DNA from: Eledone cirrhosa
Lineage: Eukaryota
DNA: 56,477 nt
Assembly: GCA_964016885.1 (NCBI GenBank)
Contig: CAXHJY010000951.1
Span: 1 to 56,477 of the forward strand
Direction: 5' to 3'
Under the pieces are notes generated by a model. It did no database searches, was not told where the DNA came from, and saw only the letters and a list, made by a program, of their open reading frames with translations. Below, piece after piece: positions 7,519-11,837 of this stretch. A program made the translations under genes and the position numbers. How positions within the stretch are numbered: the stretch's first letter is position 1; each line of letters starts with the position of its first letter.

Positions 7519-7525
<7 letters not shown>

Positions 7526-10500
7526 TTAGAAACACACAGATACATGCGGGGACACACATATATACATGAATGCATCCGCACCCAACTGTGAGTTAAGGGT
7601 GCCAACTTCACCGATGTTGCTCAATGAATGACTGGGACAGACCAATTCAGTTTGAACCAGACTGAACCAGTATCAGAGTTAAAAATACATTATGAAGAGA
7701 GAAGAAACATTTAGATATAATTAGTAATAAAATGTATCATACCTAAACTGTTCCTAAATTCCTCGACTACGTAGTTTCGTGGCATAAACAAAAACAATAT
7801 ATCAAAGATATAGAGTCCTTGCGAGGTCTGCCGACTTATCAAGAGGATACCTCATTTTACTAGTCCCAAGAACGCGTCTACACGACGTGAGAAAGAATCC
7901 CAAAAGGCGGAGGGGGAGATAGTCACGCGATATAACGGTCGAGAAACAGAGCTAAGCCTCTTATAACCACGAAGAAAATACCACGGAGGCGGAGGGGGTA
8001 TTCATATCGAGGCCGTAGAAGAGGTAGTGAAGAAGGCGAGAGGTATGAGTAATGGAAGCTTTCCAGTTGTCCCCACACCTCAAAGATTGCTCGACCAGAG
8101 GGAGTTATTAATATATTTAGAAACACACAGATACATGCGGACACACACATATATACATGAATGCATCCGCACCCAACTGTGAGTTAAGGGTGCCAACTTC
8201 ACCGATGTTGCTCAATGAATGACTGGGACAGACCAATTCAGTTTGAACCAGACTGAACCAGTATCAGAGTTAAAAATACATTATGAAGAGAGAAGAAACA
8301 TTTAGATATAATTAGTAATAAAATGTATCATACCTAAACTGTTCCTAAATTCCTCGACTACGTAGTTTCGTGGCATAAACAAAAACAATATATCAAAGAT
8401 ATAGAGTCCTTGCGAGGTCTGCCGACTTATCAAGAGGATACCTCATTTTACTAGTCCCAAGAACGCGTCTACACGACGTGAGAAAGAATCCCAAAAGGCG
8501 GAGGGGAAGATAGTCACGCGATATAACTGTTGAGAAACAGAGCTAAGCCTCTTATAACCACGAAGAAAATACCACGGAGGCGGAGGGGGTATTCATATCG
8601 AGGCCGTAGAAGAGGTAGTGAAGAAGGCGAGAAGTATGAGTAATGGAAGCTTTCCAGTTGTCCCCACACCTCAAAGATTGCTCGACCAGAGGGAGTTATT
8701 AATATATTTAGAAATACACAGATACATGCGGACACACACATATATACATGAATGCATCCGCACCCAACTGTGAGTTAAGGGTGCCAACTTCACCGATGTT
8801 GCTCAATGAATGACTGGGACAGACCAATTCAGTTTGAACCAGACTGAACCAGTATCAGAGTTAAAAATACATTATGAAGAGAAAAGAAACATTTAGATAT
8901 AATTAGTAATAAAATGTATCATACCTAAACTGTTCCTAAATTCCTCGACTACGTAGTTTCGTGGCATAAACAAAAACAATATATCAAAGATATAGAGTCC
9001 TTGCGAGGTCTGCCGACTTATCAAGAGGATACCTCATTTTACTAGTCCCAAGAACGCGTCTACACGACGTGAGAAAGAATCCCAAAAGGCGGAGGGGGAG
9101 ATAGTCACGCGATATAACGGTCGAGAAACAGAGCTAAGCCTCTTATAACCACGAAGAAAATACCACGGAGGCGGAGGGGGTATTCATATCGAGGCCGTAG
9201 AAGAGGTAGTGAAGAAGGCGAGAAGTATGAGTAATGGAAGCTTTCCAGTTGTCCCCACACCTCAAAGATTGCTCGACCAGAGGGAGTTATTAATATATTT
9301 AGAAACACACAGATACATGCGGACACACACATATATACATGAATGCATCCGCACCCAACTGTGAGTTAAGGGTGCCAACTTCACCGATGTTGCTCAATGA
9401 ATGACTGGGACAGACCAATTCAGTTTGAACCAGACTGAACCAGTATCAGAGTTAAAAATACATTATGAAGAGAGAAGAAACATTTAGATATAATTAGTAA
9501 TAAAATGTATCATACCTAAACTGTTCCTAAATTCCTCGACTACGTAGTTTCGTGGCATAAACAAAAACAATATATCAAAGATATAGAGTCCTTGCGAGGT
9601 CTGCCGACTTATCAAGAGGATACCTCATTTTACTAGTCCCAAGAACGCGTCTACACGACGTGAGAAAGAATCCCAAAAGGCGGAGGGGGAGATAGTCACG
9701 CGATATAACGGTCGAGAAACAGAGCTAAGCCTCTTATAACCACGAAGAAAATACCACGGAGGCGGAGGGGGTATTCATATCGAGGCCGTAGAAGAGGTAG
9801 TGAAGAAGGCGAGAAGTATGAGTAATGGAAGCTTTCCAGTTGTCCCCACGCCTCAAAGATTGCTCGACCAGAGGGAATTATTAATATATTTAGAAACACA
9901 CAGATACATGCGGACACACACATATATACATGAATGCCTCCGCACCCAACTGTGAGTTAAGGGTGCCAACTTCACCGATGTTGCTCAATGAATGACTGGG
10001 ACAGACCAATTCAGTTTGAACCAGACTGAACCAGTATCAGAGTTAAAAATACATTATGAAGAGAGAAGAAACATTTAGATATAATTAGTAATAAAATGTA
10101 TCATACCTAAACTGTTCCTAAATTCCTCGACTACGTAGTTTCGTGGCATAAACAAAAACAATATATCAAAGATATAGAGTCCTTGCGAGGTCTGCCGACT
10201 TATCAAGAGGATACCTCATTTTACTAGTCCCAAGAACGCGTCTACACGACGTGAGAAAGAATCCCAAAAGGCGGAGGGGGAGATAGTCACGCGATATAAC
10301 GGTCGAGAAACAGAGCTAAGCCTCTTATAACCACGAAGAAAATACCACGGAGGCGGAGGAGGTATTCATATCGAGGCCGTAGAAGAGGTAGTGAAGAAGG
10401 CGAGAAGTATGAGTAATGGAAGCTTTCCAGTTGTCCCCACACCTCAAAGATTGCTCGACCAGAGGGAGTTATTAATATATTTAGAAACACACAGATACAT

Positions 10501-11832
10501 GCGGACACACACATATATACATGAATGCATCCGCACCCAACTGTGAGTTAAGGGTGCCAACTTCACCGATGTTGCTCAATGAATGACTGGGACAGACCAA
10601 TTCAGTTTGAACCAGACTGAACCAGTATCAGAGTTAAAAATACATTATGAAGAGAGAAGAAACATTTAGATATAATTAGTAATAAAATGTATCATACCTA
10701 AACTGTTCCTAAATTCGTCGACTACGTAGTTTCGTGGCATAAACAAAAACAATATATCAAAGATATAGAGTCCTTGCGAGGTCTGCCGACTTATCAAGAG
10801 GATACCTCATTTTACTAGTCCCAAGAACGCGTCTACACGACGTGAGAAAGAATCCCAAAAGGCGGAGGGGGAGATAGTCACGCGATATAACGGTCGAGAA
10901 ACAGAGCTAAGCCTCTTATAACCACGAAGAAAATACCACGGAGGCGGAGGGGGTATTCATATCGAGGCCGTAGAAGAGGTAGTGAAGAAGGCGAGAAGTA
11001 TGAGTAATGGAAGCTTTCCAGTTGTCCCCACACCTCAAAGATTGCTCGACCAGAGGGAGTTATTAATATATTTAGAAACACACAGATACATGCGGACACA
11101 CACATATATACATGAATGCATCCGCACCCAACTGTGAGTTAAGGGTGCCAACTTCACCGATGTTGCTCAATGAATGACTGGGACAGACCAATTCAGTTTG
11201 AACCAGACTGAACCAGTATCAGAGTTAAAAATACATTATGAAGAGAGAAGAAACATTTAGATATAATTAGTAATAAAATGTATCATACCTAAACTGTTCC
11301 TAAATTCGTCGACTACGTAGTTTCGTGGCATAAACAAAAACAATATATCAAAGATATAGAGTCCTTGCGAGGTCTGCCGACTTATCAAGAGGATACCTCA
11401 TTTTACTAGTCCCAAGAACGCGTCTACACGACGTGAGAAAGAATCCCAAAAGGCGGAGGGGGAGATAGTCACGCGATATAACGGTCGAGAAACAGAGCTA
11501 AGCCTCTTATAACCACGAAGAAAATACCACGGAGGCGGAGGGGGTATTCATATCGAGGCCGTAGAAGAGGTAGTGAAGAAGGCGAGAAGTATGAGTAATG
11601 GAAGCTTTCCAGTTGTCCCCACACCTCAAAGATTGCTCGACCAGAGGGAGTTATTAATATATTTAGAAACACACAGATACATGCGGACACACACATATAT
11701 ACATGAATGCATCCGCACCCAACTGTGAGTTAAGGGTGCCAACTTCACCGATGTTGCTCAATGAATGACTGGGACAGACCAATTCAGTTTGAACCAGACT
11801 GAACCAGTATCGGAGTTAAAAATACATTATGA

Positions 11833-11837
<5 letters not shown>
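7519..11837 (-). repeat. Tandem array of a 591-bp unit (7.3 copies), each full unit with a hammerhead ribozyme; retrozyme-like multimer
   Basis: The same 75-aa ORF recurs every 591 bp (7923, 8514, 9105, 9696, 10287, 10878, 11469). Units differ by only a few SNPs. Both ends abut (TA)n. Confidence 0.95.
7760..7847 (-). ncRNA. Type I hammerhead ribozyme with U3-A8 variant core (copies start at 7760, 8351, 8942, 9533, 10124, 10715, 11306)
   Basis: Minus strand reads UCCUC-UUGAUAA-GU(C)GGCA...UGCCAC-GAAA-CUACGUAG-UC|GAGGA. Stem I is 5 bp, stem II is 6 bp with a bulge, stem III is the palindrome ACUACGUAGU, and the cleavage triplet is GUC (cut between 7765 and 7764). Confidence 0.8.

Follow-up and report, generated by a model that had tools for sequence, protein, structure and literature searches.

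The window (the whole 56,477-nt stretch of Eledone cirrhosa DNA analysed here) holds a tandem array of a protein-free element whose RNA is probably cut, circularised, A-to-I edited and rolling-copied into (TA)n by a borrowed Penelope-like RT-endonuclease. The family to which it belongs is young and has thousands of copies. Rather less firmly, we favor the view that the genome records rolling-circle retrotransposition, in which one Penelope-like element (PLE) complex primes an edited, ribozyme-made circle twice, at two fixed positions within it, and a single event yields as many as 14 copies, the ADAR edits acting as hard-wired barcodes that drive family evolution and let single templates be read from DNA.

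A tandem array of 591-bp units with a minus-strand hammerhead

The array at 7519-11837 consists of seven full 591-bp periods plus 182 bp and is flanked on both sides by (TA)n tracts, as described in an earlier note on this DNA that read it as 7.3 near-identical units. Pairwise, the units differ by 0-6 nt, units 6 and 7 are identical to each other, and adjacent units carry common variants here as well as in loci L059 and L086. Positions within the unit are counted from window position 8110 as position 1, which places the predicted cut between positions 247 and 246. The features of the array are as follows.

7519..11837, minus strand: single-arm retrozyme insertion of 7.3 head-to-tail 591-bp units, with the RNA 3' end on the left and the 5' truncation on the right (unit position 182)
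7473..7519, unstranded: (TA)n target tract at the 3' (priming) end
11837..11912, unstranded: (TA)n tract at the 5'-truncated end
7760..7847, minus strand: predicted type I hammerhead with a U3-A8 core, a 57-nt stem II domain and a palindromic stem III region (motif scan; cut-site footprint)
8351-8438, 8942-9029, 9533-9620 and 10124-10211, minus strand: further intact hammerhead motifs
10715..10802, minus strand: unit 6 hammerhead with a stem I mismatch at 10717 (motif scan)
11306-11393, minus strand: unit 7 hammerhead with the same stem I change at 11308 (motif scan)
8947..9537, minus strand: one predicted 591-nt monomer, running between successive cut sites and 62% paired when folded as a circle
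9088-9098 and 9170-9180, minus strand: two GC-box-like motifs upstream of the ribozyme, kept in an older 587-nt family

The GC-box-like motifs might conceivably have a promoter role, which is only a guess. In agreement with the earlier reading, the array has no RT or nuclease ORF; its longest stop-to-stop frame is 86 aa and has no Pfam hit. The unit codes for no protein, has a GC content below 50% and revealed no LTR arrangement in a search that left out PBS and PPT.

A motif scan of both strands found the minus-strand motif UCCUC-UUGAUAA-stem II-GAAA-CUACGUAG-UC|GAGGA, with a predicted cut at 7765/7764. The motif is intact in five of the seven full units, while units 6 and 7 carry GAGGA>GACGA in stem I (10717 and 11308); the strand and cut site claimed for the hammerhead therefore stand, and its presence in every full unit does not. 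The assignment comes from our own motif scan and not from Rfam, a search of which returned no hammerhead and only microRNA noise. The core, which the earlier note expected a strict CUGANGA search to miss, is a described variant (U3-A8; PMC4209133).

The proposal that the unit RNA is structured was borne out, as the linear minus-strand monomer folds far beyond its shuffles (z -5.05), and the circular fold reaches -171.3 kcal/mol against -137.5 +/- 5.9 kcal/mol for shuffles. Both polarities were folded and an opposite-strand ribozyme was sought, a check that had been proposed at the outset: the plus-strand circular fold (-129.5) was no better than shuffles, and the motif scan found no plus-strand hammerhead. 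A viroid-like replicon does not fit, since the ribozyme motif and strong structure occur in the minus polarity only. The fold of the isolated 88-nt ribozyme is marginal (z -1.85), and the active ribozyme fold costs 8 kcal/mol within the predicted circle. The ribozyme stems are almost invariant and showed no covariation above shuffles. None of 60 fixed variant columns falls in the 44 ribozyme-critical columns (p 0.01), a test that is partly built in, as the 50 loci were chosen for an intact core; the direct comparison of fixed and single-unit variants in these columns was not significant (p 0.12).

Dispersed copies, probably inserted by a Penelope-like process

Searching the 3.0-Gb assembly with a 19-nt core pattern gave 7,659 exact matches, compared with none for the reversed control. 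By hand count, the first 100 listed matches correspond to 50 loci across 53 Mb, from which we infer by extrapolation some 3,000-3,800 loci, with older subfamilies counted in. These 50 loci were picked for containing the ribozyme; half of them (25) are inverted, and of their 77 arms 33 are longer than a single unit. Copies are dispersed both as monomers and as multimers, so that the variable unit number anticipated for the family is found. With thousands of insertions dispersed through the genome, the array cannot be put down to local duplication, which removes one of the objections that the earlier note had raised against its own reading. An older sister family has a 587-nt monomer with 74.5% identity, the same ribozyme core and corresponding ends; it is represented in L121-L145 (for example L136:2100-2686), with 2,250 first-look candidates.

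We mapped 123 loci (77 in a first set that includes the window, and 46 later); the first set of 77 is what was left after removing redundant views, a segmental duplicate and a pair that occurred twice. Two positions account for nearly all arm ends.

7519..7522, minus strand: fixed start site A (unit position 1-4), the end used by the window insertion, 245 nt from the cut site on its 3' side; 95 of 194 arms
7685..7685, minus strand: fixed start site B (unit position 167, recurring with the 591-bp period), 80 nt from the cut site on its 3' side; 89 of 194 arms

Sites A (position about 2) and B lie 165 nt apart and together provide 184 of the 194 ends, the remaining 10 lying elsewhere, and ends at either site are nearly always joined to (TA)n; site B is not an end of the window copy. 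The head-to-head two-arm inserts combine A with B in 61 of 62 cases (A+A 1, B+B 0), with 6 more having an unclassified arm, and a B+B structure is present in a separately selected set (L107 and part of L114). Arms reach 7.6 units, and in inverted inserts each of the two arms comprises several units, in arbitrary phase. The insertion thus shows a PLE signature, in keeping with the PLE-type insertion into (TA)n suggested before. In sequencing run X1, ends joined loosely to (TA)n lie at 8111 and 8276 and match sites A and B, but this run may be that of the source sample.

Another objection, that the unit is a pseudo-LTR of an autonomous PLE, found no support: at none of 78 loci is a unit joined to an RT/GIY-YIG ORF (with the window PLE proteins as the only queries), and none of 34 GIY-YIG 3' regions from fetched loci has homology to the unit. 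Locus L109 adjoins a truncated PLE over about 240 bp of (GT)n, and this PLE was rejected as a partner because it is unrelated and has its own hammerhead-like motif.

Known PLEs (Anolis Poseidon, PMC11167929; insertion structure, PMC8557442) similarly have two internal RT start sites with both target strands extended, and they too go into AT-rich targets, carry an inverted copy at the 5' side and have a tail at just one of their ends. In contrast to these elements the retrozyme has no ORF, and its tail is 165 nt instead of 30-40 bp.

Arm ends accumulate at the predicted cut site

Divergence exactly after position 246 was seen in 27 copies, compared with 10 at a control site under the same filter (p 0.008), and on fetching all 27 proved to be arm ends. 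Among the (TA)n-joined 5' ends in the first 100 of 441 matches listed, 28 lie in 232-246 and 6 in 247-262 (p 9e-5), a count that covers 34 distinct loci by hand count after removal of one duplicate. Since 5' ends accumulate at the predicted site, cleavage there is likely to occur in vivo, and the ends point to cleaved linear RNA serving as template. Of 11 two-arm loci in which one arm reaches the cut on its first pass and ends there, 7 have a second arm that also stops at or beside the cut, as expected if a single cleaved RNA was the template for both. Ends of this kind are a small minority, by our estimate a few percent of passes. The 367 passes across the cut site contain no indel within 5 nt, and therefore the usual template was continuous at this site. 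In the available account of the Anolis element no RNA-seq reads start or stop at the ribozyme site (PMC11167929), whereas here genomic ends accumulate there.

An arm of the older family in L037 likewise terminates at the cut site. Contigs of 620-621 nt that return by 591, seen in two runs of unknown type, were discounted, as tandem DNA does likewise.

A>G changes common to all units point to a single edited template

Rolling reverse transcription of a ribozyme-cut circle predicts one edited monomer in all units. In 56 young loci, shared variants were concordant between arms in 45 of 48 cases. On the ribozyme strand, A>G makes up 27 of 57 rare variants present in every copy of a locus but only 3 of 96 single-unit variants, and this excess was repeated in the 46 new loci (fixed 18/44, single-unit 3/74). 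Private variants give the cleanest counts, because loci of one lineage are not independent: here A>G accounts for 12/27 fixed and 6/126 single-unit variants, and within one arm for 11/23 variants in every unit compared with 5/111 in single units (7 loci). Strand-specific changes in all units exclude DNA mutation after insertion as their origin and would also fix the transcribed strand. Editing of a multimer would be unit-specific, unlike the A>G changes common to all units. The presence of A>G in every unit of an arm therefore makes it likely that one edited monomer, in the simplest reading a circle, was copied repeatedly, and the rolling reverse transcription put forward in the earlier note gains support from these counts. 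The call of a retrozyme, of its strand and of its cut site now has independent genomic support from dispersal, insertion ends, footprint and A>G. That note had mentioned neither a second fixed start site nor inserts with two inverted arms, and it had not noticed the footprint at the cut site or the A>G marks.

ADAR editing avoids a 5' G, and a 5' G is found at 1 of 24 A>G sites compared with 28 of 132 adenosines (p 0.024). Genes for ADAR/ADAT-type deaminases exist in the assembly. Predicted stems hold no excess of A>G sites (0.59 versus 0.60), and it is a guess that transcripts through inverted loci could provide the duplex for editing. At locus L076, 7 A>G changes are present in all 7-8 copies of both arms. 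A 33-nt marker from this locus has 9 hits, 8 within L076 and 1 elsewhere; the latter was rejected as the source, as it belongs to a different subfamily.

The longest insertion encountered is L177 (G000:C12:14089500-14099400), with arms of 6.0 and 7.6 units; one private variant is present in 14 of 14 copies, and three unit-specific variants are common to both arms. Single-unit variants of the pooled young loci are skewed on the RNA strand, with 31 U>C and 6 A>G among 170, perhaps from RT misincorporation.

The circle route and its alternatives

The circle route, which we regard as probable, would begin with transcription of a tandem array on the ribozyme strand, after which the hammerhead would cut the RNA into 591-nt monomers and, judging from published retrozymes, a host ligase would close these to circles. 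The circle would then be A-to-I edited, with ADAR as the putative editor. A PLE protein, probably a dimer, would cut both (TA)n strands, and the two target strands would each prime from an internal site of their own on a common RNA molecule. Synthesis with strand displacement would then continue to a random drop-off, or would run off a linear or re-cut template. Points that count against this route are the variants common to adjacent units, the lack of stem enrichment at the A>G sites, the lack of covariation in the ribozyme stems and the 8 kcal/mol cost of the active fold.

An alternative of the kind proposed for autonomous PLEs, which we consider unlikely, is that uncleaved linear multimer transcripts of existing arrays are the templates and the ribozyme only occasionally trims the 5' end. 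Ribozyme mutants of the Anolis PLE insert normally in vitro, where the main substrate is unprocessed RNA (PMC11167929), and at some of our loci the B arm stops at the cut while the A arm passes through. The same reading could account for L177 and L179, the two longest two-arm loci, in which minor alleles are found in single units of both arms (three in L177 and one in L179, versus 72 alleles in one arm only) at a consistent offset between the arms. A pair of the unit-specific L177 variants is found nowhere else. One circle cannot yield alleles common to single units of both arms without later conversion; the sharing hints at gene conversion, at mixing in the assembly or at a multimer that now and then serves as template. 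However, edits made on a multimer are expected to be unit-specific, yet single-unit variants are poor in A>G (5/111, as above), and the at least 32 haplotypes of the 56 young loci, each occurring as uniform arrays, require a step from monomer to multimer. A DNA search supplied the long arrays, which have a bias toward one haplotype. Nor does the assembly contain a source array for the variants of L076 and L177 or for those of window unit 2, although such arrays may have disappeared or be present on a different haplotype. Multimer templates may possibly be mixed with the circle route.

Somewhat more doubtful still is that the RT jumps from the 5' end of a linear monomer to its own 3' end, or that an edited circle is amplified RNA-to-RNA in a viroid-like manner and the resulting multimer reverse transcribed. 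Both versions give uniform edited units, the cut-site ends point to cleaved linear RNA as template, and the available text on mussel circles leaves their sequence heterogeneity open to editing or RNA replication (PMC7229834). Against amplification, the motif scan found no opposite-strand ribozyme, and there is no sign of an edited antisense strand, with U>C no commoner among fixed (20/105) than among single-unit variants (31/170). Template jumps usually leave scars, yet no indel was found in the 367 junction passes. Finally, later growth of short insertions by unequal crossing-over (satellite growth), or uniformity as an assembly artefact, is highly improbable: local amplification is the model of bioRxiv 10.64898/2026.07.22.740005 and window units 6 and 7 are identical, but the unit differences are star-like (170 single-unit and 12 intermediate-frequency variants), each of two inverted arms spans several units in arbitrary phase, strand-specific A>G cannot arise from assembly, and single-unit variants survive in the same arrays.

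Relation to known retrozymes

By its testable features the element fits the metazoan non-LTR retrozymes and a way of working like theirs. The retrozymes of coral, mussel and axolotl (Cervera and de la Pena 2020, PMC7229834) are also non-coding tandem units with one type I hammerhead each, a GC content below 50%, thousands of copies, a structured monomer and co-occurrence with PLEs, and reverse transcription of their circles by a PLE has been proposed. Their monomers are about 170-400 nt (unit size 150-450 bp), below the 591 nt found here, and the present element, known from DNA alone, differs from them in its U3-A8 core and long stem II. The available text of that paper mentions neither fixed start sites nor inverted arms, and neither ends at the cut site nor marks of editing. 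The earlier suggestion that the unit is larger than known animal retrozymes did not hold, as 591 nt lies inside the 51-972 bp reported for vertebrate non-LTR retrozymes described as PLE derivatives (bioRxiv 10.64898/2026.07.22.740005). These also occur as monomers, dimers and multimers and have a link to PLEs, which there consists of pLTR homology, with tandem growth by local amplification, and here of insertion anatomy.

The minimal hammerheads of the Schistosoma Cercyon PLE (PMC4209133) resemble the ribozyme in U3-A8 core covariation, a short stem I, a long stem II and an unpaired base near the stem II 5' end. They are mostly single motifs or lie in pLTRs, in contrast to the one per non-coding tandem unit seen here, where the palindromic stem III region is also longer. 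Size and core thus both have precedents in the available text of these sources (bioRxiv 10.64898/2026.07.22.740005, PMC4209133).

Our searches of the open-access literature found the rolling reverse-transcription step proposed but not shown. They revealed no genomic evidence that this step takes place, that retrozyme templates are edited or that ends arise by run-off at the cut site, though supplements may hold related families. The available texts call two questions open, whether retrozyme circles are reverse transcribed and what PLE-type hammerheads do in vivo, and the young family provides genome-only evidence on each. The exact start sites, the cut site and a 591-nt substrate make the open step of the retrozyme cycle directly testable, and the edit-barcode comparison of fixed and single-unit A>G is applicable to any retrozyme or PLE in a long-read genome. 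Our results suggest that RNA editing is a main source of heritable change in the element, and that strict CUGANGA or Rfam scans overlook a family with thousands of copies.

Other elements in the window and at other loci

A PLE-like element at 17900-23460 has an open 1,089-aa RT + GIY-YIG frame (18421-21690, minus strand), which we take to be that of a PLE from its motifs; Pfam and PDB searches of the ORF gave no classification. Its inverted arm is 99.9% identical, one of its two ends is set apart from the other by a tail of some 50 nt, and this two-end layout is the same as that of the retrozyme. Near-identical copies are present in L067 and L088. Two more PLE-like families, one split into several frames and one a GIY-YIG fragment, are found at 3518-5838 and 26164-26808.

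Between (TA) ends at 1105-1325 lies a palindromic pair of minimal hammerheads of the CUGAAGA type, a motif also found close to PLE ends in L035, L038 and L103. Hammerhead-like motifs with CUGAUGA cores occur at 24733-24778, 27565-27633 and 45720-46021, the last as an inverted pair, and possibly represent further retrozyme or PLE families; relatives of the motif at 27633 are present in L051 and L099. A 68-bp tandem array at 34653-37430 (41 copies, 95% matches) contained no ribozyme in the motif scan. A long imperfect inverted repeat at 46737-46956 is MITE-like, its Rfam microRNA scores falling below gathering, and L207:4270-6780 is a minisatellite of about 2.5 kb with units of about 35 bp.
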